A stretch of DNA of 35,690 nt from an uncultured Myxococcales bacterium (GCA_964440665.1 CAYTTF010000005.1:1-35690), one strand, 5' to 3'. Counted from the stretch's first letter, positions 7,501-30,713 are shown. The notes: generated by a model from the letters alone, not told the origin. Made by a program: numbers and translations.

Positions 7501-7653
7501 CAGTGCGCCGGAGACCTGGATGGTCGGAAAGTCGACCCGCGGCAGCGGGGCGACCGACAGGTACCGGTAGGCCATCCCTCCTGCGAGGATCACGGCAGCC
7601 GCCAACAACGACGTCGCGATCGGTCGCTCGACGAAGGGCGCCGAGATGTTCAT
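4552..7653 (-). CDS. mdtC: RND efflux permease, MdtC-like (HAE-1 type).
   Basis: The 1033-aa product starts MNISAPFVERPIATSLL...LPRVDFPTIQVSGALPGASPNTMASSVATPLER. This aligns by eye with E. coli MdtC. TM4 contains GFVVDDAIVVTEN. The start overlaps the mdtB stop (ATGA). Confidence 0.93.
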   Translation of the reverse strand: MNISAPFVERPIATSLLAAAVILAGGMAYRYLSVAPLPRVDFPTIQVSGALPGASPNTMASSVATPLERRFGRIAGLTEMTSVNTLGSTSITLQFDLDRDITGAARDVQAAINASLSELPPNLPSLPNYRKVNPADSPVLILSLTSESLPLAQVFDAANSVLAQKISQISGVGQVFVGGGQQPAVRVQVDQETLAGRGLSLEDVRAALATSTANQPKGTLTGATVTYNIAATDQLLGADAYRQLVISYQNGATIRLGDVAKVFDDVENNRLAGWIDGQRCVLMIIRRQPGANILSTIDGVKAALPFLRESISPAIKVDIASDRTATIRASVRDVETTLLLSVFLVTAVVFIFLRSARATAIPTIAVPLSLIGTFGVMYLLDYSLDNLSLMALTISTGFVVDDAIVVTENIARLIEDGKPPLQAALEGAKQIGFTIISITVSLIAVFIPILFMGGIIGRLFREFAVTLSVAVAISAVVSLTVTPMMAGRLLRPASAQRQGRFYRASERVFTAMVHGYDRGLTWVLEHSLVMLFLTAATLGLTVFLAIKVPKGLFPQQDTGMLSGFSEASQDISSGAMRKAQEKVNKIVNADPDVSHTIAFVGGSSGAGNTGTMFITLKDYAKRKSNADQIIARLRPQLARVPGITLFLQSVQDVRMGGRSSRTQYQYALEDADLAELQTWSPRVLDKLKKLPQLRDVASDQQTAGLELAVDVDRDSASRLGITAQMVDDTLYDAFGQRQVATSFTALNYYRVVLEATPEQYASPDQLVHVYVRGAAGQLVPLPSIAHMTETPTPLAVTHQGQFPATTLSFNLAPGAALGDAVKAIDAAERQIGLPSGIHASFQGTAQAFGASLNSEPWLIAAALFTVYIVLGMLYESLIHPITILSTLPSAALGALIALMVLHFDFSIIALIGVILLLGIVKKNAIMMIDFALEAERNEGLDPKEAIHRACLLRFRPILMTTLAALFGAVPLALGLGAGSELRRPLGITIVGGLCVSQLLNLFSTPVIYLYHDRLRRDHAVEHQTAAAEAQAQA

Positions 7654-10600
7654 GGCGTCCCGGGCGCCACGACCGGTGTCGCGGCGACCGGCTTGTCCGG
7701 CTTGTCCGGCCTTTCTTGCTTGGCCCGTTGGTCTTTCTGGCCTTCGTTCTCATCGGGCGCCGGGCTGGGCTTCTTGCCGCGGCGCAGGCGCGCCGCCAGG
7801 CGTTCCATGTAGAGGTAGATCACGGGCGTCGTGAAGAGGGTGAGGATCTGCGAGAGCAAGAGGCCGCCCACGATGGTGACCCCGAGCGGCCGGCGCAGCT
7901 CGTTGCCGCTCCCCGTGCCGAGCGCCAGCGGCAAGCCGCCGAGGAGCGCGGCCACCGTGGTCATCATGATCGGTCGGAAGCGCAGCAGGCAGGCCTGATG
8001 GATGGCTTCGCGGGGAGACTTCTTCTCGTCGCGCTCGGCCTCGAGCGCGAAGTCGATCATCATGATGGCGTTCTTCTTGACGATGCCGATGAGCAGCACG
8101 ATCCCGATGAGGGCTATGACCGTGAATTCGGATCGGGTGACCAGCAGCGCCAAAAAGGCCCCCACGCCGGCCGACGGGAGGCTCGACAGGATCGTGACCG
8201 GGTGGATGTAGCTTTCATAAAGCACGCCGAGCACGATGTAGACCGTCACGATCGCCGCCAGGATCAGCAGCGGCTCGGTGGAGAGCGAATCGCCAAAGGC
8301 GGCGGCCGCGCACTGGAAGTCGCCGTGCAGACCGACCGGAGCCCCCATCCCGATCACGGCCGTTCGCACGGCGTTGACGGCATCGCCGAGCGCCGCGCGC
8401 GGCGCCAGATTGAAGGAGAGCGTCACGGCGGGAAACTGCCCTTCGTGGGCGATCGAGATGGTCGTCTGCGTGCGCTCGAAATGGGCAAAGGCGCTCAAGG
8501 GAACCGCCTCGCCGCTGGCGGACCGCAGATAGATCTGGCCGAGCCCGTCGGGGTTCTGCTGGTACTGGGGCGCGACCTCGAGGATCACGCGATAGAGATT
8601 GAGCTGCGTGAAGATCGTCGACACCGGCCGCTGGCCGAAGGCATCATAGAGAGTGTCGTCGATGGCTTGCGCCGTGATCCCGATCCGGGAGGCGCTGTCC
8701 CGGTCGATGACCAGCGTCATTTGCAGCGCCCCGTCCTGCTGATCGCTGGCCACGTCGGCGAGCTCGGGGATCTTCTTCAGCCGATCGAGCACCTGGGGCG
8801 CCCAGAGCGACAGCTCCTTGGGGTCGGCGTCCTCGATGGTGTACTGGTACTGCGTCCGACTGACCTGGCTTTCGAGCTCGAGATCCTGCACGGCCTGCAG
8901 ATACACGCTCACCCCGCTGACCGCCGCCAGCTTGGTGCTCAAACGATCGATGATCTGTTGCGCGTTCGAGTGCCTCTGGTCGCGCGGTTTGAGGTTGATC
9001 GACAGGCGTCCGCTGGACAGCGTGGGGTTGCTTCCGTCGGCGCCGATGAACGACGACAGGTTCTGGACGTCTGGATCGGCGCGGACGATGTCGGCGACGG
9101 CGCGTTGGCGGTCCATCATGGCCGGGAACGAGATGTCCGGCGGGGCCTCGGTGATTCCCAGCAGCATGCCGGTATCCTGTTGTGGGAAGAGGCCTTTCGG
9201 GATCACGACCGCCAGCACGATCGTGAGCGCGATGGTCGCGACGGTGGCCATCAGCGTCAATGCCTGGTGGTCGAAGATCCACCCCAGGCAACGGTCGTAG
9301 ACCTTGACCATCCAGTCGAAGGCCTTCTCCGAGGCGCCGGCGATGCGGCTTTCGTCCTCGGGCTTGGTGGGGCGCAGGATGTGCGCGCACATCATCGCCG
9401 TCAGCGTGAGCGAGATGATCCCGGACGCGACGATCGCGATGCTGAGCGTGACCGCGAACTCACGGAACAGCCGCCCGATGACGCCGCCCATGAACAGCAG
9501 TGGAATCAGCACCGCGACCAGCGAGACGGTCAGCGACAGGATGGTGAAGCCGATCTGCTTCGAGCCCTTGAGCGCGGCGGTGAAGGGCGGATCGCCGAGC
9601 TCGATGTGCCGGGAGATGTTCTCGATCATGACGATGGCGTCGTCGACCACGAACCCGGTCGAGATGGTGAGCGCCATCAAGGTCAGGTTGTTGAGGCTGT
9701 AGCCGAGCAGCAACATCACGCCGAAGGTCGCGATGAGCGACAGCGGCACCGCGACGCCCGGGATGATGGTGGCGCGGAAGTTTCGCAAGAACAGATAGAT
9801 GACCGCGACCACCAGGACCATCGTCAGCAGCAAGGTGAATTCGACGTCCCGCACGGAGGCGCGGACGGTCTCGGTGCGGTCCGAGAGAATTTCCACCTTG
9901 ATTCCCTGTGGCAGCGAGGCCTCGAGCCGGGGCAGGAGGGCCTTCACCCGCTCGGCGACCTCGATCAGGTTCGCGCCGGGCTGACGCTGGACATTGAGGA
10001 TCACGGCGGGGTGATCGTTGGCCCAGCCGGCCACCTGCGCGTTCTCCACGCCGTCGAGCACCTTGGCCACGTCGGTGAGCCGCACCGGTGCGCCGTTGAC
10101 GTAGGCGATGATGAGCGGCCCGTACCCCGCGGCGCTCAGCAGCTGATCGTTGGCGGAGACCAGATAATTCTGGCGGGGGCCGTCCAGGTTGCCCTTGGGC
10201 TGGTTGACGTTGGCGAGCGCGAGGACCGAACGGACGTCCTCGAGGCCGAGGCCGCGACCGGCCAGCGCGACGGGGTCGACCTGCACCCGCACCGCCGGCC
10301 GCTGGCCGCCGTTCAAGGTGACCAGTCCGACACCGGAGACCTGCGACAGCTTCTGCGCCAGGATCGAATCCGCGTAGTCATCGACCACGCTCAGCGCGGC
10401 GGTGTCGGAGGTGATGGAGAGCGAGATGACCGGGACGTCGGCCGGGTTGCTCTTGCTGTAGGTGGGCGGCGTCGGCAGCGTCTTGGGCAGCAGGTTCGAC
10501 GCGGCGTTGAGCGCCGCCTGGACGTCCTGCTCGGCCGAATCGATGTCGCGATCGAGCGTGAACTGCAGCGTGATCTGCGAGCTGGCAGCGCTGCTGACGG

Positions 10601-10844
10601 ACGTCAGGTGCGCCAGCGACGGAATCTGTCCCAGCTGCCTTTCCAGCGGCGTGGTCACCGCCGAGACCATCGTGTCAGCGCTGGCGCCCGGCAGGATGGT
10701 CGAGACCACGATGGTCGGGTAGTCGACCTGGGGGAGGGCGGCGACGGGCAGCTGGTTGTAGGCGGCGACGCCCGCCACCGCGACGCCGATCATGAGCAGC
10801 GCGGTGCCGACCGGGCGTCGGATGAACGGCTCGGAGATGTTCAC
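7650..10844 (-). CDS. mdtB: RND efflux permease, MdtB-like (HAE-1 type).
   Basis: I chose the GTG at 10844 (VNISEPFIRRPVGTALL..., parallel to the MNISAPF start of mdtC). It overlaps the mdtA stop as GTGA. The N-terminus LPQVDYPTIVVSTILPGASADTMVSAVTTPLERQLG is MdtB-like, and GFVVDDAIVMIEN is present. The ORF-track start at 10940 would add 32 unrelated residues. Confidence 0.92.
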   Translation of the reverse strand: MNISEPFIRRPVGTALLMIGVAVAGVAAYNQLPVAALPQVDYPTIVVSTILPGASADTMVSAVTTPLERQLGQIPSLAHLTSVSSAASSQITLQFTLDRDIDSAEQDVQAALNAASNLLPKTLPTPPTYSKSNPADVPVISLSITSDTAALSVVDDYADSILAQKLSQVSGVGLVTLNGGQRPAVRVQVDPVALAGRGLGLEDVRSVLALANVNQPKGNLDGPRQNYLVSANDQLLSAAGYGPLIIAYVNGAPVRLTDVAKVLDGVENAQVAGWANDHPAVILNVQRQPGANLIEVAERVKALLPRLEASLPQGIKVEILSDRTETVRASVRDVEFTLLLTMVLVVAVIYLFLRNFRATIIPGVAVPLSLIATFGVMLLLGYSLNNLTLMALTISTGFVVDDAIVMIENISRHIELGDPPFTAALKGSKQIGFTILSLTVSLVAVLIPLLFMGGVIGRLFREFAVTLSIAIVASGIISLTLTAMMCAHILRPTKPEDESRIAGASEKAFDWMVKVYDRCLGWIFDHQALTLMATVATIALTIVLAVVIPKGLFPQQDTGMLLGITEAPPDISFPAMMDRQRAVADIVRADPDVQNLSSFIGADGSNPTLSSGRLSINLKPRDQRHSNAQQIIDRLSTKLAAVSGVSVYLQAVQDLELESQVSRTQYQYTIEDADPKELSLWAPQVLDRLKKIPELADVASDQQDGALQMTLVIDRDSASRIGITAQAIDDTLYDAFGQRPVSTIFTQLNLYRVILEVAPQYQQNPDGLGQIYLRSASGEAVPLSAFAHFERTQTTISIAHEGQFPAVTLSFNLAPRAALGDAVNAVRTAVIGMGAPVGLHGDFQCAAAAFGDSLSTEPLLILAAIVTVYIVLGVLYESYIHPVTILSSLPSAGVGAFLALLVTRSEFTVIALIGIVLLIGIVKKNAIMMIDFALEAERDEKKSPREAIHQACLLRFRPIMMTTVAALLGGLPLALGTGSGNELRRPLGVTIVGGLLLSQILTLFTTPVIYLYMERLAARLRRGKKPSPAPDENEGQKDQRAKQERPDKPDKPVAATPVVAPGTP

Positions 10845-12160
10845 TGTTGCGGCCGCCCGGTCGTTGTATTCGGGGACCCTGAGAGGGTCCCCGTGCCCCC
10901 CCGCGAAGGACTCTGCCGGGCTGAGCCCGGCTCCGTCCACGCGCCGGCGCCTCCCGTCCCGGCTGCCCGGCCGCTGGCGCCACCCGTTCCGCGGCCGTTG
11001 CCCGCGTCGCGCAGCGAGACGCGCGCTCCGGGACGCAGCTGGCTCTGTCCCTCGCGCACGACCCGGTCGCCCGCCGAGAGGCCCTGGGAAACGACGGCGT
11101 CCTCACCTTCGATCCGCTCCACGGTCACGTTACGCAGGTCCGCCTTCTCACCCTCGACGATGTACACGAACGTCCCCTGCGGGCCGCGCTGTACCGCCGC
11201 CGCGGGAATCACCAACGCCCCCTTGCGGACCATCAGGCGCAGGCGCGTCTTGACGAACTCGTTTGGCCACAACACATGGCTCGGATTGGAAAAGACCGCC
11301 TTGAGCCGGATGGTGGCCGTTCCCTGGTTGATCTGGTTGTCGATCAACAGAAGCTGCCCCTTGCCCAGCGTCTTCGCGCCATCTCGGCTGCGGGCTTCCA
11401 CCTCGAGCGGGCTCTGCGCTTGCTGGCGCGCAATGTCGGGCAGGTCGTCCTGCGGCAGGGTGAACAGCACCGCGATGGGATCCATCTGCGCCACCACCAC
11501 GATGCCCCCCGTGTCGGCGGCGTGCACGATGTTGCCGGGATCGACGAGGCGCACGCCGGTCACGCCGTCGATGGGCGACTTGATGCGCGCGTAGTCGAGC
11601 TGCAGCTTGGCGTTTTCGATCGTCGCCTGATCGTTTTGCACCGTGCCCTTGTATTGCTCGACCAGCGCCCGCTGGTCGTCGATCTGCTGTTGCGGCAGCA
11701 GGTGCTGCCCGCCGACCGCCTCGTAGCGATCGAGATCGCGCTTTGCCCCCTCGTACTGCCCGGTATCGCGCGCCAACGCCGCTTCTCCCTGATGGAGCAA
11801 GATGGTGAACGGACGCGGATCGATCTGCGCGAGAACCTCGCCACGCTTGACCGTCTGGCCCTCTTTGAAATCGACCCGGTCCATCCGCCCGTCGACCTGC
11901 GAGCGGACGTTGACGGTCTTGTACGCCGTGACCGAGCCAAGCCCTTCCAGATAGATCGGGACGTCGCGAATCGTGGCGTTCGAGACCAGAACCGGGATCG
12001 CGCGATCGCTCCCGGCGGCCCCGTGTCCGCTCTGGGCGGCCGCCATCTCTTCGCTTTTTCCGCAGCCGCACGCGGCAAGGACAGCAAAGGAGAGGAAGGC
12101 CGCCGAGGCGGCGACGGCGGCCAACGTCGTTCTTGGCGAAGGCTCTCTCTTGGCGTTCAT
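10841..12160 (-). CDS. mdtA: Membrane fusion (periplasmic adaptor) protein, MdtA/HlyD family, with a lipoprotein-like N-terminus and a 54-aa Gly-rich C-terminal tail.
   Basis: The N-terminus reads AAFLSFAVLAACGCGK. The body has a typical MFP layout (...VTAYKTVNVRSQVDGRMDRVDFKEGQTVKRGEVLAQIDPRPF...coiled coil...IDGVTGVRLVDPGNIV...). The start overlaps the tolC-like stop (ATGA). Confidence 0.9.
   Translation of the reverse strand: MNAKREPSPRTTLAAVAASAAFLSFAVLAACGCGKSEEMAAAQSGHGAAGSDRAIPVLVSNATIRDVPIYLEGLGSVTAYKTVNVRSQVDGRMDRVDFKEGQTVKRGEVLAQIDPRPFTILLHQGEAALARDTGQYEGAKRDLDRYEAVGGQHLLPQQQIDDQRALVEQYKGTVQNDQATIENAKLQLDYARIKSPIDGVTGVRLVDPGNIVHAADTGGIVVVAQMDPIAVLFTLPQDDLPDIARQQAQSPLEVEARSRDGAKTLGKGQLLLIDNQINQGTATIRLKAVFSNPSHVLWPNEFVKTRLRLMVRKGALVIPAAAVQRGPQGTFVYIVEGEKADLRNVTVERIEGEDAVVSQGLSAGDRVVREGQSQLRPGARVSLRDAGNGRGTGGASGRAAGTGGAGAWTEPGSARQSPSRGGTGTLSGSPNTTTGRPQQ
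10872..10892. repeat. Perfect palindrome GGGGACCCT-GAG-AGGGTCCCC, a REP-like element inside the 3' tail of mdtA, 28-48 nt upstream of the mdtB start.
   Basis: This is a 9-bp stem with a 3-nt loop read directly from the sequence. Related copies are at 18082-18104 and 25405-25426. Confidence 0.6.
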
Positions 12161-13551
12161 CGGTCCCCCAGGGCGGCGAGGAGCTGCGCGCGCGCGGAAG
12201 CCAGGTTGAACTGTGCCTGAACCCGCTGTGCCTCCGCGGTGGTGTACGCGACCTGTGCATCGCCGAGCTCGACCGCGCTGCCGAGGCCGTGCGCGTAGCG
12301 CTTTTCGGCGAGGGTGAGCTGGTCACGCGCATTCACGGCCGCCTCTTCGGCGGCGCCGATGGTGGCCTTGGCGGCCTGTATGCCCAGCCGCCCCTGCTCG
12401 ACGTCGACCTCCACTTGAAGGCGCTCCGCCGCCTCCTGCCCGGCGAGGTTCTCGAGCGTCCCTTTCGCCTCTCGCACCTGCCCGCGGGTGAGCCCGCCCT
12501 GGAAGATGTTCCAGCTCAGCACCAGACCGGCATACCAGTTGGGCACCAACCCGTCGATCGCGACCCCGTTGTCCGAGACATTGGCGATGGCGCCCAGGCT
12601 CGGGGCGTAAGCGCCGCGCAGCGAGGCGACGGTCAGCTCCTGTGCGCGCCGCTGATCCACCAGGTTGGCGACCTCCGGGCGGACGCGGAGGGCGCGGTCG
12701 GCAAGTGGGCCGGAAGGGCCGTCCTCGCCGGGGACTGGTTGCATTTCTTCGTCGGTGATCGCGAACCGCCCCGCCACCGGGACCCCCATCGCCTGCGCGA
12801 GCTGCGCCTCGGCCACCTCGAAGTTGTTCTGTGCCATCACCAGCTGGACCTTTGCGTTGGCCAGCGCCGTCAGGACCGTCGCGAGGTTGATATCTGGCTG
12901 GATGCCGGTCTTGACGAACGCCCGGGTCTGCTCCACGTGTTTCTCCTGGTTCCGCAACGACTCTTCTGCGACCGCCACCAGATCGTGCTGCGCCCGCACC
13001 TGGAAGTACGCGCGTCGGACGTTGAGCAGCGTCTGCAGCTCGGCGGTACGCGTGTTGTCGAAGGCCGCGTCTCGACTGGCGCCGGCTGAGCGCCATTTGC
13101 CGCTGGTCAGGCCGAAGTCGTAGATGAGCTGCGTGGCCGTCGCCCCGAAGAGAAAATAGTTGTACTTCGGATCCCAGCTCACGGGCGCGGTGTTGGTGCC
13201 GGTCGTACCTGTGCCGGTCGTGCCTGTACCGGTCATCCCTGTGCCGGCCGTGCCGGCGGGTAGGGCGCCCGGACGCGGCGCGAAGTTCCCGGTCGAACGC
13301 TCGTAGGTTCCGTTCAAGGTCACCTGGGGCAGGTACCCGGACCGCGACTCCTCGACGCGGCCCTCGGCCGCCTCGAGCAGGCCGTGCGATTGCTGGATCG
13401 TTGGTTGGTTGCGGAGCGCCGTCGCCTCCGCCTGGCTCAGCGTCAGCGACGTCACCGGCGCATTCGGATCGTCGGAGGTCGGCGCCGCCAGAACGAATCC
13501 TCCGATCAGCACGAGGGGAAGCAGCAGAGCGACGAGATGGCGGGGCGGCAT
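12157..13551 (-). CDS. Outer membrane efflux factor, TolC/OprM family, the first gene of the efflux operon.
   Basis: I chose the ATG at 13551 (MPPRHLVALLLPLVLIGGFVLAAPTS, a signal peptide). The body shows two TolC-type repeat halves (LTLSQAEATALRNQPTIQQS...; ...LTLAEKRYAHGLGSAVELGDAQVAYTTAEAQRVQAQFNLASARAQLLAALG). The longer ORF (GTG 13638) would run through the predicted sigma54 promoter. Confidence 0.87.
   Translation of the reverse strand: MPPRHLVALLLPLVLIGGFVLAAPTSDDPNAPVTSLTLSQAEATALRNQPTIQQSHGLLEAAEGRVEESRSGYLPQVTLNGTYERSTGNFAPRPGALPAGTAGTGMTGTGTTGTGTTGTNTAPVSWDPKYNYFLFGATATQLIYDFGLTSGKWRSAGASRDAAFDNTRTAELQTLLNVRRAYFQVRAQHDLVAVAEESLRNQEKHVEQTRAFVKTGIQPDINLATVLTALANAKVQLVMAQNNFEVAEAQLAQAMGVPVAGRFAITDEEMQPVPGEDGPSGPLADRALRVRPEVANLVDQRRAQELTVASLRGAYAPSLGAIANVSDNGVAIDGLVPNWYAGLVLSWNIFQGGLTRGQVREAKGTLENLAGQEAAERLQVEVDVEQGRLGIQAAKATIGAAEEAAVNARDQLTLAEKRYAHGLGSAVELGDAQVAYTTAEAQRVQAQFNLASARAQLLAALGDR
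13196..13255. repeat. Four in-frame copies of a 15-nt tandem repeat inside the tolC-like gene, encoding a Thr/Gly tract (TGTGMTGTGTTGTGTTGT).
   Basis: The units are gtgccggtcgtacct, gtgccggtcgtgcct, gtaccggtcatccct and gtgccggccgtgccg. Confidence 0.75.
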
Positions 13552-13610
13552 GGAGCGGCGACGTTTACCTGTAAGGCCAAAGACTGAGATCGGGAAGCGT
13601 GCTCGGGCAC

Positions 13611-13626
13611 CGCAACAAACGAGCCA
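13611..13626 (-). promoter_or_regulatory. Candidate sigma54 (-24/-12) promoter for the tolC-mdtABC operon.
   Basis: The minus strand reads TGGCTCGTTTGTTGCG, against the consensus TGGCACG-N4-TTGC. The GG and GC dinucleotides have exact canonical spacing. It lies ~60 nt upstream of ATG 13551, and a sigma54 activator gene is divergently encoded next door. Confidence 0.55.
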
Positions 13627-13722
13627 GAGCGGTACCACCTGTGGCGTTCCTCTGGTCAGGCGGATTCCGGGGCGCTAACCTGTATCAATTCTGGACACCT
13701 GTCAGTCGTGTGGGCAGCCCGT

Positions 13723-18110: not shown

Positions 18111-21100
18111 TCAGAAACTGGCGGCGGCGACCCAGTACAGCCGATCGCCGCCGCCGGTGGCAAACCCGTGGGCGTAGCCGAGCTCCACCTGGCCACCGAG
18201 GTAGTAGCCCAGACTGAATTGGAAGTGGGCCTCGGCGCCCGCGTCGGTCTTGAGATCGCGGCCCTGGAACGGGCCCTGGAACGCGTTTCCGATGTCCGTG
18301 AAGAGGACGCCCCAGATCCGGCGAAGGTAGAAGGGGAAGGTGTCGTAGCCTTTTTCGATCCAGACCAGCGGCGCGCGGTACTCCGCCGAGAGCAGGACGT
18401 AGTTGTCGCCTTGGAGGTAGTTCGCCGGATAGCCGCGAAGCGCGGCGTACTGGTACTGGTTGAGCAGGACCGCGCGCAGGACGTCCTGCGGGGAGTAGCC
18501 CCCGAGACTGAAGAAGTCGCGCGTGTCGCCGATGCCGAAACCGCCCGCGGCCATCACCGCGAACGCGTGCAGACGCGCCCACGGGGGGGTCAGATACTCG
18601 GTCCAGGAGCCGCTCACCTCGGTGGTGCGGAACCGGCCGCCCAGGATTGGGTTGGAGAAGCGCAGGTTGAGGTGAATGATCCGCCCCTCCTGGCTGCTGA
18701 TCGAATAGGGCCAGCCGTGCGCGTCGTTGAACGACCAGCCGAGGTGCAGATCGGCGTACGGTCCCTGCTGGGGTTTGATCGTGATGCCACCGGTCGGCTC
18801 GCCGACGGGGATCCGGTCGGTGGGAGCGTAGGCCGCGTAGTCGTAGCTGATGCCGAGGTCGCCCTGCGCGTCGGCGGTGTGCAGAATCGGCAGGTCGCTC
18901 CCGGCGGTCAGGTTCTCGGAGCGCTGCCGGTAGTTGAGGTTGGTGCCGTCGACGATCAGGCCCGGCGTCATCTGATCGGTGCGCGAGACCGTGACGCTGA
19001 ACGAGGGCCAGAGCCGGTTGTAGCTGTAGGAGACGTAGCCGGACGCGTCTCCGTTGGATGGAAGCAGGAGCTCGAATCCGACCGCGTGGTTGCCGACCGG
19101 ATCACCGACGCTGGTGTTGAGCTGGAACGTATTACCCAGACCGAGCGGATCCGGGAGAACCTGGACGTTCCACTGCCGCGGGTACATGTACTTCCAGGGC
19201 GCGTAGGGAACGATCCGCTGCGGGATGGGGAGCGCGGCGGCGTCTTCCGGCGCGGCATCGGGCGAATCGGTCTCGGCGTCGGGATCGGGGGAGGCGTCGA
19301 GGCGCGCGTTGGCGTAAGGCTGCGCGGGCAAGAACTGGCCCGGATCGTAGGGTAAAGACCAGAGGTCGAAGCCGTCCGAGGTGAAGCCGGTGAAGACCAG
19401 GCGGCGACCGTCGGGCGAGACGACGGGCTGGAACGCGCCCGCCAGAACGTTCGTCACCTGGAAGAGCCGCCCGGTGCGCAGCTCGTGGGCGTAGATGTCG
19501 TTGATGCCGCTTCGATCCGACGAGAACAAGATGAACCGTCCGTCGGGCGAAAACCGCGGATCGATGTCCATGGCCCGATCGACCGAGATCGCGCGGTCGG
19601 TGGCGGCCGCGAGATCGTAGATGTGAATGTCTCGAAAGCCGCCCGGCTTCCAGCGCGAATAGGTGATGAGCCGACCGTCGGGCGACCAGGCTGGTGTGAA
19701 GGCCAGCCCCGGCGCTCCCGGCTGGAGGACGCGCGGCGTCCCCCCATCGATTGGCACCAGCGCCAGCTCGCGCGTTCCGGGTCCCACCAGCACGCAGGCG
19801 ATCTGCCTCCCGTCGGGCGAGACGTCGGGCTCGTGCGCGCGGGCGCCGCGCGTGAGCTGCCGGATGGTGCCGGCCGCGACGTCGAGGCGAAACAGATCGT
19901 TCCATCCCAGCTCGGGATTGCCCGAGATGCGCAACGGCAGCGGCAGATAGTTGACCCGCGGAAAGATCAGCGCCTGCCCGTCGGGCGTCGGTGCCGCCGG
20001 ACCGCCCCCTTGCATGTCGGCGATCCGTTGATGGGCGCCGGTCTCCGGATTCAGACGGACGTAGGCCGGCGACTGATCGTCGTTGGCGCGGTGATAGACC
20101 AGCGTGCCATCGCGGAAAAATCGTCCGCCGGGACCCTCGCTGCGCGGCGACGGCGCCTCCCGGGTGAGGCGGGTTGCGACGGTGAGGGGCCGCCGTTGCG
20201 CCTCCTCGGCCTCCAGGGTGTAGCGGTGCGCGATTGATCGCCTCCAGTCGTCCCAGAGGCCGGGGCCGAACAGTCCGACGTAGCCCTGGCCGACGGTTTC
20301 GGCGACCGTGCGGTTGAGGGCGCCCGGGATGCAGGTGTCGGCGTAGCGGTGGGAGATCTCCTGGATCTTGGCGGGGCCGTAACGATCTTCGATGTAGCGC
20401 AGCACGTTTGATCCATAGGCGTACGCCGCCGTCCCGCCGGGGTAGGCCAGCGGGATCGCCGAGATCTGATCGATCCCGAAGAGCCGCCCCTCGAGGAACG
20501 GCACCCGCAGGTGCATGTCGAAGAAGCTGCTGCGTAAGCGACCGGCGGTTGTCTGGCGGGACTCCATCAGCACCGCCATCCCCTCGATGAACCACGTCGG
20601 CTCCGAGAGGTTCGGCGCGAAGGTCCTCCCCATGATCGTGTTCAGGAGGAGCGCGCAGGGGCTCAGCATGGTGTCCAGGTGGACCACGTGCGTGAACTCG
20701 TGCGTGACGAGCAGCTTGACGTAGTCGTCGAAGTCGTTCAGCTCGTCGAGCGAGCCGGGTGGCGCGCCGAAGGCCAAGATGTAGTTGTAAGGGATGGAGG
20801 TGGCGAGCCCGTTGGCGTCATCGGTGTTGTCGTCGAGGGTGATGTGCACGCGGCCGCTCGGCCGCCAGTTGAGATAACGGGTGATGAGCCGGTAGGCGCG
20901 CTCGGCGATGTGGGCCGCTCTTTCGGCAAACTTCTGTTCCGCCGGATAGAAGTGGATCTCGAAGTGCGGGGTTTCCAGCGTGTACCAGGTCGCACGCGGC
21001 AGCCGGGGCGTCGGCAGCGCCTCGGCCGGCTCCTCGATGGTGTCGGCACGGGCGCCGCGGGCCAGGGCAAAAAACGCCACCAGGACGAGGCCGGCCCTGG

Positions 21101-21113
21101 CGTGCTTTCGCAT
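18111..21113 (-). CDS. Outer-membrane multidomain protein with a signal peptide, an HExxH metallopeptidase-like region, TolB-type PD40 beta-propeller repeats and a C-terminal Omp85/surface-antigen-type beta-barrel.
   Basis: The signal peptide is MRKHARAGLVLVAFFALARGARA. HEFTH is encoded at 20688-20702 (LLVTHEFTHVVHL). There are four SPDGR repeats (SPDGRQIACV, SPDGRLITYS, SPDGRFILFSSDRSG, SPDGRRLVFTG). The barrel signature is FFSLGGYSPQDVLRA...LRGYPANYLQGDNYVLLSAEYRAPL, and the protein ends in a terminal aromatic (...WVAAASF). Confidence 0.8.
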   Translation of the reverse strand: MRKHARAGLVLVAFFALARGARADTIEEPAEALPTPRLPRATWYTLETPHFEIHFYPAEQKFAERAAHIAERAYRLITRYLNWRPSGRVHITLDDNTDDANGLATSIPYNYILAFGAPPGSLDELNDFDDYVKLLVTHEFTHVVHLDTMLSPCALLLNTIMGRTFAPNLSEPTWFIEGMAVLMESRQTTAGRLRSSFFDMHLRVPFLEGRLFGIDQISAIPLAYPGGTAAYAYGSNVLRYIEDRYGPAKIQEISHRYADTCIPGALNRTVAETVGQGYVGLFGPGLWDDWRRSIAHRYTLEAEEAQRRPLTVATRLTREAPSPRSEGPGGRFFRDGTLVYHRANDDQSPAYVRLNPETGAHQRIADMQGGGPAAPTPDGQALIFPRVNYLPLPLRISGNPELGWNDLFRLDVAAGTIRQLTRGARAHEPDVSPDGRQIACVLVGPGTRELALVPIDGGTPRVLQPGAPGLAFTPAWSPDGRLITYSRWKPGGFRDIHIYDLAAATDRAISVDRAMDIDPRFSPDGRFILFSSDRSGINDIYAHELRTGRLFQVTNVLAGAFQPVVSPDGRRLVFTGFTSDGFDLWSLPYDPGQFLPAQPYANARLDASPDPDAETDSPDAAPEDAAALPIPQRIVPYAPWKYMYPRQWNVQVLPDPLGLGNTFQLNTSVGDPVGNHAVGFELLLPSNGDASGYVSYSYNRLWPSFSVTVSRTDQMTPGLIVDGTNLNYRQRSENLTAGSDLPILHTADAQGDLGISYDYAAYAPTDRIPVGEPTGGITIKPQQGPYADLHLGWSFNDAHGWPYSISSQEGRIIHLNLRFSNPILGGRFRTTEVSGSWTEYLTPPWARLHAFAVMAAGGFGIGDTRDFFSLGGYSPQDVLRAVLLNQYQYAALRGYPANYLQGDNYVLLSAEYRAPLVWIEKGYDTFPFYLRRIWGVLFTDIGNAFQGPFQGRDLKTDAGAEAHFQFSLGYYLGGQVELGYAHGFATGGGDRLYWVAAASF

Positions 21114-21655: not shown

Positions 21656-22498
21656 TCAGCGGGTGCGGCTCAGATCGCGGCAGATCCGGAGGTGGCGTAG
21701 CGCGGCGCCGTAGTCGCCCGCCAGATCGTAGAGGCGGGCGACGTTGTAGTGGGCATCTGCGTTGCGGCCGTCCACGGTGATGGCGTCCCCGTAGGCCTCG
21801 AGGGCCGCGTCGTTGCGCCCCTGATCTTCCAGCACGACGCCCAGGTTGAAGAGCGCGGTGGGATCGTTCGACCGGATCGCCAGCGCCTGGCGATAGTGCG
21901 CCTCGGCGGTGGGGAGATCGCCACGCTCGTGCAGGATGCGTCCCAGGTTGATGTGCGCATCGGCATGCTCGGGGGCCTGCATCAGGACCTGCCGGTAGCT
22001 GGCCTCGGCCTGTTCGGGATCGGCCTCGTCGACGTCGCACCCGATCTCATAGATCTCGTCGGTGGAAGGGGGCACCACGTCGCCGCCGGACGGAACCGCC
22101 GACCGGGAGGGAAGCATCGCCATCGGCGCGCTGCCGGGATCGATGAACGGGCCGTTGAAAGCGAGCAGCACCTGGCCCGACTCGGCTTGCCAGCGGGTGT
22201 TCCCTTCGTGGACCACGACCGACGACCCCTCGGCCTGGAGCTGCATGCCGGTCAGCGGCCGGGTGTCGGGGAGACGCGCGCGCAGCTTCTTGAGCGCCAG
22301 CCGCACGCGGTGGGGGCGGATGCGCTGGCGAACCAGCTCCTCCGCCTTGCGAAGCAGGAGGAGATCCTGGAATGAAAACCGCAGCTCGCCGCGCTGGCCG
22401 TGCTCGGGCGACAGGACGCCCGAGCGCAAGTAGGCGCGCAACCGGCCCGAAGAGACGCCGATCATGCGCGAAACATCCTGGGTCGTGTAGCCGCTCAA
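21656..22498 (-). CDS. MerR-type HTH protein fused to C-terminal TPR repeats.
   Basis: The N-terminus reads YTTQDVSRMIGVSSGRLRAYLRSGVLSPE...FSFQDLLLLRKAEEL. The C-terminus has TPR-like units (AEASYRQVLMQAPEHADAHINLGRIL, AEAHYRQALAIRSNDPTALFNLGVVL, ALEAYGDAITVDGRNADAHYNVARLY). Confidence 0.75.
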   Translation of the reverse strand: MSGYTTQDVSRMIGVSSGRLRAYLRSGVLSPEHGQRGELRFSFQDLLLLRKAEELVRQRIRPHRVRLALKKLRARLPDTRPLTGMQLQAEGSSVVVHEGNTRWQAESGQVLLAFNGPFIDPGSAPMAMLPSRSAVPSGGDVVPPSTDEIYEIGCDVDEADPEQAEASYRQVLMQAPEHADAHINLGRILHERGDLPTAEAHYRQALAIRSNDPTALFNLGVVLEDQGRNDAALEAYGDAITVDGRNADAHYNVARLYDLAGDYGAALRHLRICRDLSRTR

Positions 22499-22561
22499 GC
22501 GCCGCGAATATAGCAGCGCACGGTTGTGGCGGGGCCGCCAGTTATTGGCGCGCTATGAGGG

Positions 22562-22579
22562 CGTTGCCGTGAGGCAACG
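22562..22579. terminator. Hairpin in the Ku / MerR-TPR intergenic region.
   Basis: The sequence cgttgcc-gtga-ggcaacg forms a 7-bp stem with a GNRA-like tetraloop. There is no U-tract, so its function is uncertain. Confidence 0.3.
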
Positions 22580-22625
22580 GGGAGCGAAGCGAACCATGCC
22601 CGACGCCGTGCCGCCCGGAGGCGGC

Positions 22626-23528
22626 CTATCGCTTTCGTGCCCGCTTGCGATCGGCAGCCGGAGTCTCCTCCGAGCGGTGCGCGGCCCGGCGCGACGCGGG
22701 CTCATCGGCCGCCTCCGCGTCCGGCGCCGGCGCGGCTTCCTTGGTCCGCGCCGCCGCCTTGCCGAGGCTGGCCTTGAGCGCGGCCATTAGATCGATGATC
22801 CGGGCCGGCTCGGGCGCCGGCGCGCTCTCGGAGATGTCGTGCCCCTGCACCTTGCGGTCGATATCGGCTTGGATCCGCTCCCGGACCTCGTCGTGGAAGA
22901 GCGTCGGCTCGAACGTCTCGCTGGCGATCTGGTCGATGAGCTGCTTGGCGAGCTTGAGCTCCGGCTCACGCACCTCCCCGCCTGGCAGCGGCACCTCGGC
23001 CATCGGCCGGACCTCGTCGGCGTAGAGCAGCTCCTGCAGAATCAGCGCCCGCCCGTCGGCCGAGGGGCGCAGCATCACCAGATACTGCTTGCCTCGGGCG
23101 GCGTAGCGGGCCAGCGCGGCGCGGCCGGTCTCGCGCATCGCCTCCGCCAGCAGCAAGTAGGCCTTGTCTCCCCCCTTTTCTGGCCCGAGATAGTAGGGGC
23201 GCTCGAAGTAGATCGGATCGATGGCCGCCAGCGGGACGAACGCCGCGATGTCGATGCTCTGGGTCGCCTTCTCCTCGAGGGACTTGAGCTCCTCGGGGGT
23301 GAAGGTCACGTACTGGTCCTTGGCGAACTCGTAGCCCTTCACCATGTCGTCGCGGCTGACGGCCTCGCCGTCGCGGGGGCAGATGTACTGCTGCTTGAGC
23401 CGCGAGCCGCACTTCTTGTGCAGCAGGTTGAACGATATGGCGGCGGAGCTCTGGGTGGCCGGATAGAGCCGCACCGGGATCGACACCAGACCGAAGGAGA
23501 TGGTCGCGCCTGCGATTGCTCTTGCCAT
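22626..23528 (-). CDS. ku: Ku DNA end-binding protein (bacterial NHEJ).
   Basis: It starts MARAIAGATISFGLVSIPVRLYPATQS...ISFNLLHKKCGSRLKQQYICP...MVKGYEFAKDQYVTFTPEEL...FERPYYLGPEKGGDKAYLLL. The C-terminal tail is basic (...DRKRARKR). Confidence 0.93.
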   Translation of the reverse strand: MARAIAGATISFGLVSIPVRLYPATQSSAAISFNLLHKKCGSRLKQQYICPRDGEAVSRDDMVKGYEFAKDQYVTFTPEELKSLEEKATQSIDIAAFVPLAAIDPIYFERPYYLGPEKGGDKAYLLLAEAMRETGRAALARYAARGKQYLVMLRPSADGRALILQELLYADEVRPMAEVPLPGGEVREPELKLAKQLIDQIASETFEPTLFHDEVRERIQADIDRKVQGHDISESAPAPEPARIIDLMAALKASLGKAAARTKEAAPAPDAEAADEPASRRAAHRSEETPAADRKRARKR

Positions 23529-27052: not shown

Positions 27053-27278
27053 GGGGCCGATCGTAATGCTCCGGCGCGCACTTTAAAAGGTGATCGAAAC
27101 GTCATCGTGGATTCAATTCGGGAGCGCGCGTAAGATGGGAAATGGTGGATTCTCGGGCGATCGGCTGACGAAATCGCCGTGTTTCCGCCACCGACTGAAG
27201 ATATCCAGAGCTTCCTCGCGAGAAAGGCCCGCTGTGAGCATAGGTTCCCCCCAGCCTAGGGTTCGACGCTCGCCTTCG

Positions 27279-30200
27279 ATGTTCCACCGACCGGTCTGCC
27301 CGAAGAGCGGGGCCGTCGGGGCATGGACATTGGGCCGTGCCGCCGTTGCCGCCGCGGCCGTTGTCGTCGCCATCGCCGCCCTGGGCGTGGCGGGCGGATG
27401 TGGTGGCGGGGCGCAGATCCGGCAGCCCGACGCGGGTGCAAAGACCGATGGTCCGACAGTCATGGATGGTGGGGGAACGGACTCGCACCATGGCGAGGGG
27501 CCCGGGATCGCCCTCGGGCAGCCCTGCACGGACGCGGCGAAGTGCGGATCGGGCATTTGTGTGGACGGCGTCTGCTGTAACACCGCCTGCGACGGCGCGT
27601 GCCTGACCTGCGCCGCCTCGGGCAGCGTCGGCACCTGCGTCCCGGCCGATGTCGGCACCAATCCACGGAACGGCTGCACCGACATGGGCGCGGCCAGCTG
27701 CGGGACCGATGGTCTCTGCGACGGCACGGGGAGCTGCGAGAACTACGCCGCCGGCGTGACCTGCCAGCAGCCGGGATGTACCGGATCGACGCTGCTCTTC
27801 GCGGGACGCTGCGATGGCGTGGGGACCTGTGTGACACCGGCGAGTCAGTCGTGCGCGCCGTGGACCTGCGGATCGACGGGCGCCTGCAAGACCACCTGCT
27901 CGGCCGATGCCGACTGCACGGCGGGCAACTTCTGCGTCTCGGGAAGCTGCGGGCTCAAGCCGCCCGGCGCGACTTGCGGCGCCGGCGGCGATTGTAAGTC
28001 GGGAATCTGCGCGCAGGGCGCTTGCTGCGCGACGGCCTGCACGGGCAACTGCAAGTCCTGCGCGCTCACCGGGAGCGCGGGGACCTGCACGAACGTGCCG
28101 AGCGGGCAGGATCCGCAGGGGCAATGCGCGGACGCCCTGGCGCCGAGCTGTGGCACCAACGGCTCCTGCGACGGTATGGGCGCCTGTCAACTCTACCCGT
28201 CGACCACGATCTGCGGCACCAACACTTGCACGGCGGGCACGGAGACCCTGGCCGGAAAGTGCGACGGCCTCCTCGGCGTTTGTCAGGCGGGAACGACGCA
28301 GAGCTGCGGCGCCTACGCTTGCGACACGACCGGCGTCTGCAAGACCAAGTGCGCGGTCGACGCGGATTGCGCGTCTGGAGATTTCTGCATCGCCACGGTC
28401 TGCGGAAAAAAGGCGACCGGCGCGGCCTGCGCCGCGGGCGGCGACTGCACGTCGAACCACTGCGAGCAGGGCATCTGTTGCAATACCGCCTGCACGGGGA
28501 CCTGCATGTCGTGCGCCCTGACCACCAGCCTTGGCACCTGCACGCCGGTGGCTCTCGGCGCCGATCCACTCAATCAGTGTCCGGATGTCGCCGCCACCAA
28601 CCCGTGCGGGACCAACGGGTCGTGCAACGGCGCCGGCGCCTGCCAGTTCTACCCGGCGGGGCTAAATTGCGGCGCCGTCTCGTGCACCGGCTCGACGCTG
28701 ACCCAGGCGCGAACCTGTGACGGCGCCGGAACCTGTCGCGCGGCGATGACCGCGATGTGCGTGCCCTACGTCTGCGGGACGGCGGCTTGCAAGACCACCT
28801 GCGCCTCGACCGCGGACTGCGTTTCGCCCAACGTCTGCACCAACGGTAGTTGCGGAAAGAATCCGATCGGCGCGACCTGCGCCGTGGCCGCCGATTGCGG
28901 GTCCGGTTTCTGCGCGCAAGGTGTCTGCTGCAATTCGACCTGCACGGGCACCTGTCAATCGTGCGCGCTGGCGGGCAGCGCCGGCACCTGCTCGCCCGTG
29001 CCAGCGGGCGCGGCGCCCAACCCCACCACCCAGTGCACGACGACGACCGCCTCGACTTGCGGCACGGACGGGATGTGTGACGGCGCCGGAGCTTGCCGGA
29101 AGTACGTGAGTGGCACGCAATGCGGTGCCGCGACCTGTACCGGTACCAACTTCAAGCCCCCGAACCTGTGCGACGGCACCGGCACCTGCGGCACGGTCAC
29201 CCCAACGACCTGCGGCGGCAATCTCATCTGCGGTACGAACGGCCAGTGCAAAGCCACCTGCGCGTCCAGCGCGGACTGCGTCGCGCCCAACCTCTGCAAC
29301 ACGACGACTGGCACCTGCGGTCTCAAGGGGAGCGGGACGACCTGCGGCGCCGGGGCGGAATGCGCGTCCGGGTTCTGCCAACAGGGCGTCTGTTGTTCGA
29401 GCGCCTGCACCGGCACCTGCCAATCGTGCGCGCTCGCCGCCACGGCGGGAACATGTACCAACGTTCCCCTCGGTCAGGCGCCGAACCCGACGAGCATGTG
29501 CTCGGATCTCGGCGCCACGATGTGCAAGACGAATGGCCTCTGCGACGGAACGGGAAAGTGCCAGCTCTACGGCACGACGACCACCTGCGCGCCCGCGACC
29601 TGTTTGGGCTCCACGCTCACCCCGCCACAGACCTGCGACGGCGCCGGCAACTGCAAGACCGTGACCTCGACGCTGTGTGATCCTTACGGGTGCGGTACGA
29701 CCTCCTGCAAGACCACCTGCGCCGCCAACACCGATTGTGCGACGCCGGCCACTTGCAACACCACGACCGGCAGCTGCGGCAAGCTGTCGCAAGGCGCGGC
29801 CTGCACGACGGCCGCCTCCTGCGCCTCCGGGTTCTGCGTCAACAGCGTTTGCTGCAACAACGCCTGCACCGGAATCTGCACGGCGTGCAACCTGGCCGGC
29901 AGCCCCGGGACGTGCACCTCGATTCCCGGGGGGAGCCCGCCGAATCCCACCACCCAGTGCACCAACACCGGCGCCGCTACCTGCGGAACGAACGGGTTCT
30001 GCAACGGCAGCGGGGCGTGCCAGAAGTACGCCTCCGGCACCAGCTGCGCGGCGGCGACCTGCACCGGATCCAGCCTGACCGGCGGGTCGACCTGCAACGC
30101 GAGCAGCATGTGCGTCGCCCCCGCGCCGACCAGCTGCAATCCCTACATCTGTGGCGCTGGCGCGTGCAAGACCACCTGCGCGACCACCGCCGACTGCGTC

Positions 30201-30713
30201 CCCCCCGACGTCTGCACGGGCACCGTGTGTTCTCCGCCCGCGACGCTGTCGGTGGCGCTCAAGGCCGTGAATATTGGGAACGTCCAGTTCATAACGATCA
30301 ACGTCCACCTCACCAACAACGGGACATCGGCAGTTCCGCTCACCCAGGTCACGGTTCGCTACTGGTACACGCTGGACGGTGGCACGGCGACGCAGACCCC
30401 GAACTGCGACTACACCTTCCTGCCCGGCAACTGTTCATCCATCGTCTACAGCGCCTCGTCGTTCGTGACGATGGCCACCCCCAAAGCGACCGCCGATCAC
30501 TACTTCCAGTTCGGGTTTGCGAGCGGCGCGGGCAGCTTGGCCGCCGGCGGCGGTACCACCAGCGACATGCAGCTCCGCTGGAACAAGAACGACTTCACGA
30601 ACTTCACGCAGACGAACGACTATTCGTACAACGCCTCGACGACCGCCTGGGTCACGACCACGAAGGTCACCGCCTATCTGAACGGCGCCCTCGTCTACGG
30701 CACCGAGCCGTAG
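27279..30713 (+). CDS. Giant Cys-rich surface lipoprotein with six ~150-aa Cys-rich modules and a C-terminal CBM3 cellulose-binding module.
   Basis: I chose the ATG at 27279 (MFHRPVCPKSGAVGAWTLGRAAVAAAAVVVAIAALGVAGGCGG, a lipobox-like AGGC); the start is uncertain. The last ~157 aa align by eye along their whole length with the clostridial scaffoldin CBM3a (VTVRYWYTLDG, PNCDYT, ADHYFQFGF, LRWNKNDFTNFTQTNDYSY, VTAYLNGALVYGTEP). Confidence 0.82.
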   Translation: MFHRPVCPKSGAVGAWTLGRAAVAAAAVVVAIAALGVAGGCGGGAQIRQPDAGAKTDGPTVMDGGGTDSHHGEGPGIALGQPCTDAAKCGSGICVDGVCCNTACDGACLTCAASGSVGTCVPADVGTNPRNGCTDMGAASCGTDGLCDGTGSCENYAAGVTCQQPGCTGSTLLFAGRCDGVGTCVTPASQSCAPWTCGSTGACKTTCSADADCTAGNFCVSGSCGLKPPGATCGAGGDCKSGICAQGACCATACTGNCKSCALTGSAGTCTNVPSGQDPQGQCADALAPSCGTNGSCDGMGACQLYPSTTICGTNTCTAGTETLAGKCDGLLGVCQAGTTQSCGAYACDTTGVCKTKCAVDADCASGDFCIATVCGKKATGAACAAGGDCTSNHCEQGICCNTACTGTCMSCALTTSLGTCTPVALGADPLNQCPDVAATNPCGTNGSCNGAGACQFYPAGLNCGAVSCTGSTLTQARTCDGAGTCRAAMTAMCVPYVCGTAACKTTCASTADCVSPNVCTNGSCGKNPIGATCAVAADCGSGFCAQGVCCNSTCTGTCQSCALAGSAGTCSPVPAGAAPNPTTQCTTTTASTCGTDGMCDGAGACRKYVSGTQCGAATCTGTNFKPPNLCDGTGTCGTVTPTTCGGNLICGTNGQCKATCASSADCVAPNLCNTTTGTCGLKGSGTTCGAGAECASGFCQQGVCCSSACTGTCQSCALAATAGTCTNVPLGQAPNPTSMCSDLGATMCKTNGLCDGTGKCQLYGTTTTCAPATCLGSTLTPPQTCDGAGNCKTVTSTLCDPYGCGTTSCKTTCAANTDCATPATCNTTTGSCGKLSQGAACTTAASCASGFCVNSVCCNNACTGICTACNLAGSPGTCTSIPGGSPPNPTTQCTNTGAATCGTNGFCNGSGACQKYASGTSCAAATCTGSSLTGGSTCNASSMCVAPAPTSCNPYICGAGACKTTCATTADCVPPDVCTGTVCSPPATLSVALKAVNIGNVQFITINVHLTNNGTSAVPLTQVTVRYWYTLDGGTATQTPNCDYTFLPGNCSSIVYSASSFVTMATPKATADHYFQFGFASGAGSLAAGGGTTSDMQLRWNKNDFTNFTQTNDYSYNASTTAWVTTTKVTAYLNGALVYGTEP
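27516..30230 (+). repeat. Six diverged tandem protein-level modules (~450 nt each) within the Cys-rich gene.
   Basis: The VCC/ICC/ACC-x3-C-x3-C-x2-C landmark recurs at ORF-track aa 162, 312, 463, 613, 768 and 921. Each unit has about two dozen Cys by my count. The recurring motifs are CxSGxCxxGxCCxxxCxGxCxxC, CGTxGxCDGxGxC, xCDGxGxC and G(A/x)CKTxCxxxxDC. Confidence 0.8.

Follow-up and report, generated by a model that had tools for sequence, protein, structure and literature searches.

We analysed a window of 35,690 nucleotides of DNA from an uncultured Myxococcales bacterium (GCA_964440665.1, CAYTTF010000005.1:1-35690; G+C about 68%), which bears, at positions 18111-21113 of the minus strand, a gene for an outer membrane protein of the Omp85 superfamily that carries an enzyme-like module. 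The encoded protein is made up of four parts, namely a Sec signal peptide, a gluzincin-type domain, a PD40 beta-propeller and an Omp85 barrel, and it adds a new Polyangia member to the WD40-like subfamily of Omp85 proteins, in which it was placed by its architecture and by its structural matches to the description of that subfamily. We consider it reasonably probable that this protein is a zinc metallopeptidase which is tethered to the outer membrane, faces the periplasm and has its substrates selected or gated by the propeller. The architecture is not new, having been catalogued in 2014; what is added here to the catalogued subfamily is a residue-level gluzincin site, the lid-lock motifs of the barrel, the number of propeller blades, the selection acting on each domain and the size of the family.

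The open reading frame (ORF) is complete, with an ATG start, 1000 codons and a stop codon at 18111-18113, and it is a genuine gene under constraint. Comparison with three orthologues (82-92% identical) revealed no internal stops, and the ratio of non-synonymous to synonymous substitution rates (dN/dS) was 0.18-0.23 overall; taken by domain, it was 0.13-0.16 (peptidase), 0.13-0.18 (propeller) and 0.24-0.31 (barrel). Purifying selection acts on each of the three domains, and it is strongest on the peptidase and the propeller rather than on the barrel. A protein database search with the 1000-aa protein retrieved 3058 homologues. Residues 1-23 (MRKHARAGLVLVAFFALARGARA; 21045..21113) were read directly from the sequence, by eye, as a Sec-type signal peptide with a basic n-region, a hydrophobic core and an A-x-A site, followed by DT. 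Neither a twin-Arg nor a lipobox Cys was seen in the signal-peptide region by this reading; the protein is not expected to be a lipoprotein because there is no Cys in that region, and a lipobox-like motif occurs in just one of 95 relatives. The Rfam, promoter and terminator scans gave nothing relevant to this gene; two terminator-like hairpins sit within the signal-peptide codons, their number not being above that in shuffles. The initial annotation of this DNA had described an ORF of 1000 aa with a signal peptide, the motif HEFTH at nt 20688-20702, four SPDGR repeats and C-terminal Omp85 hallmarks ending in Phe, and every one of these features was found where it had been placed.

Predicted zinc site of the N-terminal domain

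The gluzincin-type (clan MA(E)) metallopeptidase domain is proposed to comprise residues ~40-306 (20196..20996, on the minus strand like every feature of this gene), on the basis of a domain model, Foldseek comparisons, weak Pfam matches in relatives and the dN/dS values. In the AlphaFold2 (AF2) models it consists of a sheet of five strands and then a helical bundle. The HEFTH motif (residues 138-142; 20688..20702), which would supply two zinc-ligand His and the catalytic Glu, sits on the helix formed by residues 128-148; the chance expectation for an HExxH motif in a protein of the same composition is ~0.02. The segment WFIEGMAVLME (residues 174-184; 20562..20594) contains E177, the predicted third zinc ligand, located on helix 174-187 and 34 residues past HExxH, as well as a second invariant Glu, E184.

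A model of the N-terminal domain alone was built because the matches of the propeller and the barrel crowded this domain out of the Foldseek list obtained with the whole model. The domain-only model (predicted local distance difference test, pLDDT, 87.5; predicted template modelling score, pTM, 0.86) placed HExxH and E177 on consecutive long helices behind the five-stranded sheet, and its Foldseek matches were exclusively gluzincins, with E values from 4e-5 to 1e-3. They included the M1 enzymes IRAP, ERAP1/2, PfA-M1, tricorn-interacting factor F3 and APN, together with M30 lugdulysin, the peptidase domain of the M9 collagenase G and an M61 enzyme. As modelled, the domain would have a thermolysin-like catalytic fold, which it shares, like the HExxH motif and the Glu on the next long helix, with the gluzincins M1, M9, M30 (hyicolysin/lugdulysin), M61 and Peptidase_MA_2. 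Fold comparison alone found relatives of this domain, since a sequence-profile search of the PDB returned none. When 49 diverse members of the family were scanned against Pfam, counting families at E <= 1, Peptidase_MA_2 was weakly matched by eight of them (best E = 2.2e-4), and a few gave weak matches to BSP, M9, M61 or DUF1570.

The conservation of the predicted site was evaluated in an alignment of 95 full-length members, which are 25-39% identical to the query and have a mean column identity of 25%. Just 16 columns of this alignment are invariant, and H138, E139, H142, E177, G178 and E184 (each 95/95) are among them. A180 is kept in 92 of the 95 members and W174 in 83, and the extended family motif around E177 reads W-x-x-E-G-x-A-x-x-x-E. 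Y231, a candidate transition-state Tyr, is found in all members except one (94/95). Judging from the conserved residues, H138, H142 and E177 may bind zinc, with E139 as the putative general base.

The motif around E177 resembles the form WLNEGFASYVE of the M1 family. In M1 aminopeptidases, however, the spacing between HExxH and the Glu is 18, whereas 73 of the 95 members have a spacing of 33 residues and the window protein one of 34; GxMEN, the exopeptidase motif of M1, is present in none of the 95, and the other M1 domains are lacking from the window protein. An M1 aminopeptidase in the strict sense was ruled out because of the absence of GxMEN and the different spacing of the Glu. Nor does the domain reach the threshold of any curated gluzincin family. 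It appears to represent a separate gluzincin family without a Pfam model, is more probably an endo- or oligopeptidase than an M1 aminopeptidase as far as its motifs indicate, and could merit a curated peptidase family of its own.

Propeller, linker and barrel

The gluzincin-type domain is followed by a TolB-like PD40 beta-propeller (residues ~330-588; 19350..20126). Four SPDGR repeats, at residues 432, 477, 522 and 566, and two degenerate blade cores, FFRDGT at 335 and TPDGQ at 376-380, give D-G cores at 335, 378, 434, 479, 524 and 568, which implies that the propeller is six-bladed. It was recognised by Pfam PD40 (E = 1.5e-21) and by the NCBIfam TolB propeller model (E = 1.3e-26), sequence searches of the PDB found TolB propellers, and Foldseek matched the full-length model to the TolB-like structure 2ojh with a target-normalised template modelling (TM) score of 0.72. 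Precomputed matches on relatives to PF26549 and PF26550 correspond to Tricorn_N and Tricorn_2nd, both of them propeller families. In the model, a long two-stranded hairpin (strands 381-396 and 399-411; 19881-19973, minus strand) is inserted in the second blade, and it could be in contact with the peptidase or the barrel.

TolB is the best match of the six-bladed PD40 propeller, but an identity with the TolB of the Tol-Pal system was rejected: TIGR02800 gave 93.5 bits vs a cutoff of 343 and was matched in its propeller part only (positions 186-351 of 418), the N-terminal alpha/beta domain of TolB being unmatched and absent from the window protein. The likeness to TolB does bear on whether the HExxH domain is an enzyme at all. 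It could be an inactive pseudo-peptidase which binds peptides or proteins, so that the periplasmic module would be a TolB-like tether or scaffold, an explanation with which a TolB-like propeller, an N-terminal domain below the threshold of every curated peptidase family and the position of one paralogue behind ExbB/ExbD genes are all consistent. Pseudo-enzymes usually lose their catalytic residues, whereas the general-base Glu, the three predicted zinc ligands and Y231 (in 94 of 95 members) have been kept across a family of 25% identity. The N-terminal domain of TolB is moreover absent and the ExbBD context is limited to that single paralogue. We regard an inactive scaffold as quite unlikely. 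The pairing of a propeller with a peptidase, along with the Tricorn_N and Tricorn_2nd matches in relatives, also recalls tricorn and the S9 peptidases, but the window protein has no serine-peptidase domain; its propeller would instead be paired with a zinc gluzincin, and a covalent link joins the whole module to an outer-membrane barrel.

The propeller and the barrel are joined by a linker rich in Pro, Ala and Asp (residues 589-643; 19185..19349), recognised by its low pLDDT and its composition, whose length varies from 35 to 169 residues across the family and which occupies the place of the POTRA domains of BamA and TamA. No Pfam match to POTRA was obtained in the window protein at E <= 1, and POTRA was absent from the Pfam families matched by at least two of the 49 diverse relatives at the same threshold. 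The model of the linker does not contain a beta-alpha-alpha-beta-beta unit, and therefore no hidden POTRA is apparent. The window protein thus falls outside the classical definition of an Omp85 protein, which includes POTRA domains.

The C-terminal part of the protein (residues 644-1000; 18114..19184) was identified as an Omp85 barrel of the BamA/TamA type by Pfam, AF2, Foldseek and profile searches. The full-length AF2 model was built from 42 sequences (mean pLDDT 78, pTM 0.77), and DSSP counted in it 16 barrel strands from residue 644 to residue 999, the 11th and 12th of which are connected by a long loop. In Foldseek the barrel matched those of TamA, BamA and FhaC (E ~1e-10, target-normalised TM 0.6-0.73), and the family profile detected D. 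radiodurans BamA in the PDB with E = 6.6e-7, as well as TamA. Pfam PF01103 was matched over residues 658-972 with 25.6 bits, a narrow margin over its gathering cutoff of 24, and by 24 of the 49 relatives (best E = 1.9e-12). The hallmarks of the C-terminal region are FFSLGGY (with LGG at 870), LRGY (892-895), EYRAPL (911-916) and a terminal Phe, which is also the last residue in 70 of the 95 relatives.

The signature motifs of Omp85 proteins are (V/I)RG(Y/F) at the tip of loop L6 and (F/G)xDxG on strand 13, the latter with an F form in BamA and TamA and a G form in TpsB proteins (Maier et al. 2015, PMC4490367). Both lid-lock motifs are found in the window protein. LRGY (residues 892-895; 18429..18440) is part of the loop that links strands 11 and 12, with R893 in 93 and G894 in all 95 members, and its first position is Leu in 84 of them instead of Val or Ile. 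FTDIG (residues 938-942; 18288..18302), within the 13th strand of the AF2 model (928-945), has the F form, as do BamA and TamA, and is conserved at F938 (78/95), D940 (91/95) and G942 (82/95).

Given this barrel, it has to be asked whether the protein is primarily an assembly factor for outer membrane proteins (OMPs), in which a BamA barrel and a BamB-like propeller would form a docking platform and the HExxH domain would be accessory. The barrel is indeed of the BamA/TamA type and conserves both lid-lock motifs, this function was proposed by Heinz & Lithgow in 2014 (PMC4104836), and NCBI names some of the homologues 'BamA/TamA family outer membrane protein'. Yet POTRA domains, described as the substrate-interacting elements of Omp85 proteins (PMC4490367), were not detected, and the propeller is of the six-bladed PD40/TolB type vs the eight blades of the prototypical BamB (PMC11358297). 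An accessory role fits poorly with a complete predicted zinc site that is invariant, and with selection that constrains the peptidase and the propeller the most, not the barrel. The NCBIfam BamA model (NF058613) gave 15.4 bits vs a cutoff of 1050. On these grounds a protein devoted mainly to OMP assembly seems unlikely.

The likeness to BamA and TamA consists of the 16-stranded barrel, the L6 motif, the F-form motif of strand 13, the C-terminal aromatic residue and the Foldseek E value of ~1e-10. In contrast to these proteins, however, the periplasmic part of the window protein would be an enzyme plus a propeller, and no TamB- or BamD-like gene is its neighbour. A BamA/TamA identity was rejected because there is no POTRA and NF058613 is far below its cutoff, so that the name given by the source databases fits the barrel only.

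Location of the enzyme module and proposed mechanism

In all solved Omp85 proteins that we know of, L6 is extracellular. As LRGY is in the loop between strands 11 and 12, this loop corresponds to L6, and with FxDxG on strand 13 the parity of the strands puts the start of strand 1 at the periplasmic face; the enzyme module preceding strand 1 would then be periplasmic unless it is translocated. This location is derived from the model, and translocation is the alternative to be weighed against it. The peptidase, with or without the propeller, might be a passenger exported or released by the barrel in a type V-like manner, becoming a surface or secreted protease for predation or feeding. Myxobacteria secrete many proteases, and a long flexible linker could in principle thread a pore. 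Such an export was raised by Heinz & Lithgow for another subfamily of enzyme-Omp85 proteins, 'Metallo' (PMC4104836), and the original model for PlpD was of the same kind (PMC11116518). Experiments nevertheless placed the patatin domain exclusively in the periplasm in PlpD, which is the only enzyme-Omp85 fusion to have been characterised, and for a folded domain the passage through an Omp85 barrel of 16 strands is considered energetically and structurally unfavourable (PMC11116518). In the window protein the F-form lid lock that closes the extracellular face is kept, and the cargo would be ~600 residues of globular propeller and helical domain, with no beta-helix. An exported passenger is therefore very unlikely in our judgement.

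PlpD is the best functional analogue of the window protein because its enzyme domain has been shown to be periplasmic. The two have in common an enzyme domain, in PlpD a patatin-like phospholipase, placed N-terminal to an Omp85 barrel. They differ in that PlpD has one POTRA, is a lipase and forms a homodimer (PMC11116518), whereas the window protein has no POTRA and combines a predicted metallopeptidase with a propeller.

The mechanism that we infer, including zinc binding, catalytic activity and gating by the propeller, would be the following. After Sec export, the 16-stranded barrel with its intact L6 lid lock would be inserted in the outer membrane, and the preceding ~640 residues would hang into the periplasm on the flexible Pro/Ala/Asp-rich linker. 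Zinc would be held by H138, H142 and E177, with E139 acting as the general base. Propellers gate or select substrates in the tricorn protease and in S9 peptidases; by analogy with them, and with the protein-binding propeller of TolB, the propeller of the window protein may bind, filter or gate substrates. Unfolded polypeptides or peptides would then be cleaved at the inner face of the outer membrane, with envelope-protein turnover, quality control or peptide processing as possible roles.

Several observations weigh against this mechanism. No Pfam peptidase family was matched by the window protein at E <= 1 and no curated NCBIfam peptidase family significantly; the best HExxH matches in NCBIfam, flagellinolysin (E = 0.0018) and MXAN_6640_HExxH (E = 0.015), were far below their cutoffs. 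The query-normalised TM scores of the N-terminal domain in Foldseek were just modest (0.42-0.54). The gating role of the propeller is assigned by analogy only, and the strict conservation of the lid lock suggests that anchoring the enzyme may not be the only function of the barrel. Finally, a biochemical, experimental or structural study of any member of the family was not found in the full-text literature.

The structural interpretation given by the initial annotation, that of an Omp85 barrel in which the POTRA domains are apparently replaced by an HExxH peptidase-like region and a propeller, was supported on each of the three counts on which it could have failed. The C-terminal region has the strands, the structural and profile matches and the lid-lock motifs of an Omp85 barrel rather than another fold; no POTRA appeared in the window protein or its relatives, the model showing just a linker in that place; and the HExxH region has both a predicted third metal ligand, E177, and a modelled fold that matches gluzincin peptidases only. 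The domain annotation by hidden Markov models that it had suggested was borne out for PD40 and PF01103, and not for the peptidase, which no Pfam family recognised in the window protein.

The retention of the BamA/TamA-type lid lock also makes it conceivable that the barrel engages polypeptides by itself. The barrel could engage nascent or stalled envelope polypeptides and hand them to its own gluzincin-propeller module, as a POTRA-independent counterpart of BAM-BepA, or it could be a polypeptide-conducting Omp85 pore coupled to a periplasmic peptidase. We take either version to be rather unlikely; if true, such a barrel-plus-protease machine would work in a way that has yet to be demonstrated for an Omp85 protein. 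BepA is described as an M48 metalloprotease that docks onto BamA for OMP quality control. On that description, both systems would have a zinc metalloprotease at the periplasmic face of an Omp85 barrel, BepA being a separate, soluble M48/TPR protein (TPR, tetratricopeptide repeat), whereas the gluzincin of the window is fused to its own POTRA-less barrel. The functional parallel is speculation.

Subfamily, gene context and significance

The Omp85/TpsB superfamily was split into ten subfamilies by Heinz & Lithgow (2014, Front Microbiol 5:370, PMC4104836), one of which, 'WD40-like', carries PD40 repeats instead of POTRA domains and has its best structural match in TolB. The main text of that paper treats the WD40-like proteins as BamA-BamB-like fusions and never mentions a peptidase; its Table S3, however, has a 'best aminopeptidase hit' column that is filled for most of the WD40-like members, with Phyre templates c1z5hB, c4kxdA, c3qnfA and c4fgmA at ~99% confidence (PMC4104836). 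Structures or families of this table, namely 3qnf, 4fgm and tricorn-interacting factor F3, recur in the Foldseek list of our N-terminal domain. In 2024 the subfamily was summarised as having 'divergent WD40 and peptidase domains' (PMC11358297) and was listed among those that 'have not been well characterized' (PMC11116518). The window protein does not differ from it in kind, as it has the same PD40-barrel arrangement without POTRA, the same match to TolB and the same aminopeptidase-like region upstream. The initial annotation could not say if this architecture had already been characterised; the 2014 classification includes it as the WD40-like subfamily, and our literature search found no experimental study of it. 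The novelty implied by that annotation is lower because of the earlier catalogue.

The size of the family was estimated with the N-terminal domain. An exhaustive HMMER search with residues 25-330 gave 4,997 representatives of 50%-identity clusters at E <= 1e-3, and 764 at E <= 1e-30. This search of representatives and the profile search were used instead of an earlier alignment of the N-terminal domain alone, which was too shallow and was set aside. Most of the best 150 matches are 930-1040 residues long and are matched at their N-terminus, which makes the three-part architecture the norm for this module. All the relatives with at least 54% identity came from metagenome-assembled genomes (MAGs) of soil Polyangia/Myxococcota; the accession list of Heinz & Lithgow suggests a spread beyond Myxococcota (PMC4104836). 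The names under which the members are deposited are 'Tol biopolymer transport system component', 'PD40 domain-containing', 'DPP IV N-terminal domain-containing', 'BamA/TamA family' and 'hypothetical', and none of the family members retrieved bears the name of a metallopeptidase. Many database entries of the family are short, frameshifted or truncated metagenomic gene calls (P0120, P0121-P0176), in which the active site can therefore seem to be lost; in P0120 the HExxH region is replaced by an out-of-frame sequence.

The gene is located between a divergent OsmC gene upstream and a convergent class-III aminotransferase gene downstream, and is apparently monocistronic. Upstream of the target gene, its strand also carries a Ku gene and a gene for a regulator with a MerR-type helix-turn-helix and TPR (21656-23528, minus strand). 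The conservation of this neighbourhood was judged from the loci of orthologues: the order Ku, MerR/TPR, (OsmC) and the target gene is kept in almost all the Polyangia orthologue loci that were fetched (L002-L047), the OsmC gene being inserted, in the opposite orientation, in the closer relatives. This fixed neighbourhood points to vertical inheritance at a fixed chromosomal position. More distant members (33-36% identity) have differing neighbourhoods with no common partner gene, and no TamB-like, TpsA-like or BamD-like gene adjoins those that were examined. The gene is thus a stand-alone one.

A paralogue that is 70% identical (P0021) occurs in the same MAG as an orthologue (P0026), on contig CAVSAG010000002.1 (locus L001 2338-11021, the same as L046). 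It lies directly behind a gene for a TonB-dependent receptor, a fused ExbB/ExbD gene and three unannotated ORFs, all in the same orientation, and shares 13 nt with the last of these ORFs. A link to TonB/ExbBD as a general feature of the family was rejected, since among the fetched loci this context is confined to the paralogue locus.

Elsewhere in the window, a second PD40-repeat protein of 618 aa (33221-35077, plus strand; Pfam PD40 E = 2.9e-10) is encoded ~12 kb away from the target gene. The window also contains a complete resistance-nodulation-division (RND) efflux operon (4552-13638, minus strand), made up of an OEP outer-membrane factor (12157-13638), a membrane-fusion protein (10841-12160) and two tandem AcrB-type pumps (7650-10940 and 4552-7653). 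An ORF of 1207 aa (27090-30713, plus strand) has a C-terminal CBM_3 cellulose-binding module (residues 1064-1140) as its sole Pfam match, the remaining ~1000 residues being without one.

Omp85 proteins are central to the biogenesis of the outer membrane and, to our knowledge, all the well-studied members (BamA, TamA, TpsB, Toc75 and Sam50) work through POTRA domains. For the WD40-like subfamily, the present analysis sharpens the existing hypothesis with a complete and strictly conserved predicted gluzincin site, probably that of an endopeptidase, with a peptidase and a propeller that are the most constrained parts, with a retained lid lock and with a stand-alone gene. It also suggests concrete mutants (E139A, H138A, E177A, R893A and D940A) and makes a clear prediction of topology. 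For specialists, the combination of a clean gluzincin site and an enzyme module more constrained than the barrel is a directly testable lead. If the enzyme is active, it would be the second outer-membrane-tethered periplasmic hydrolase on an Omp85 scaffold, after PlpD.

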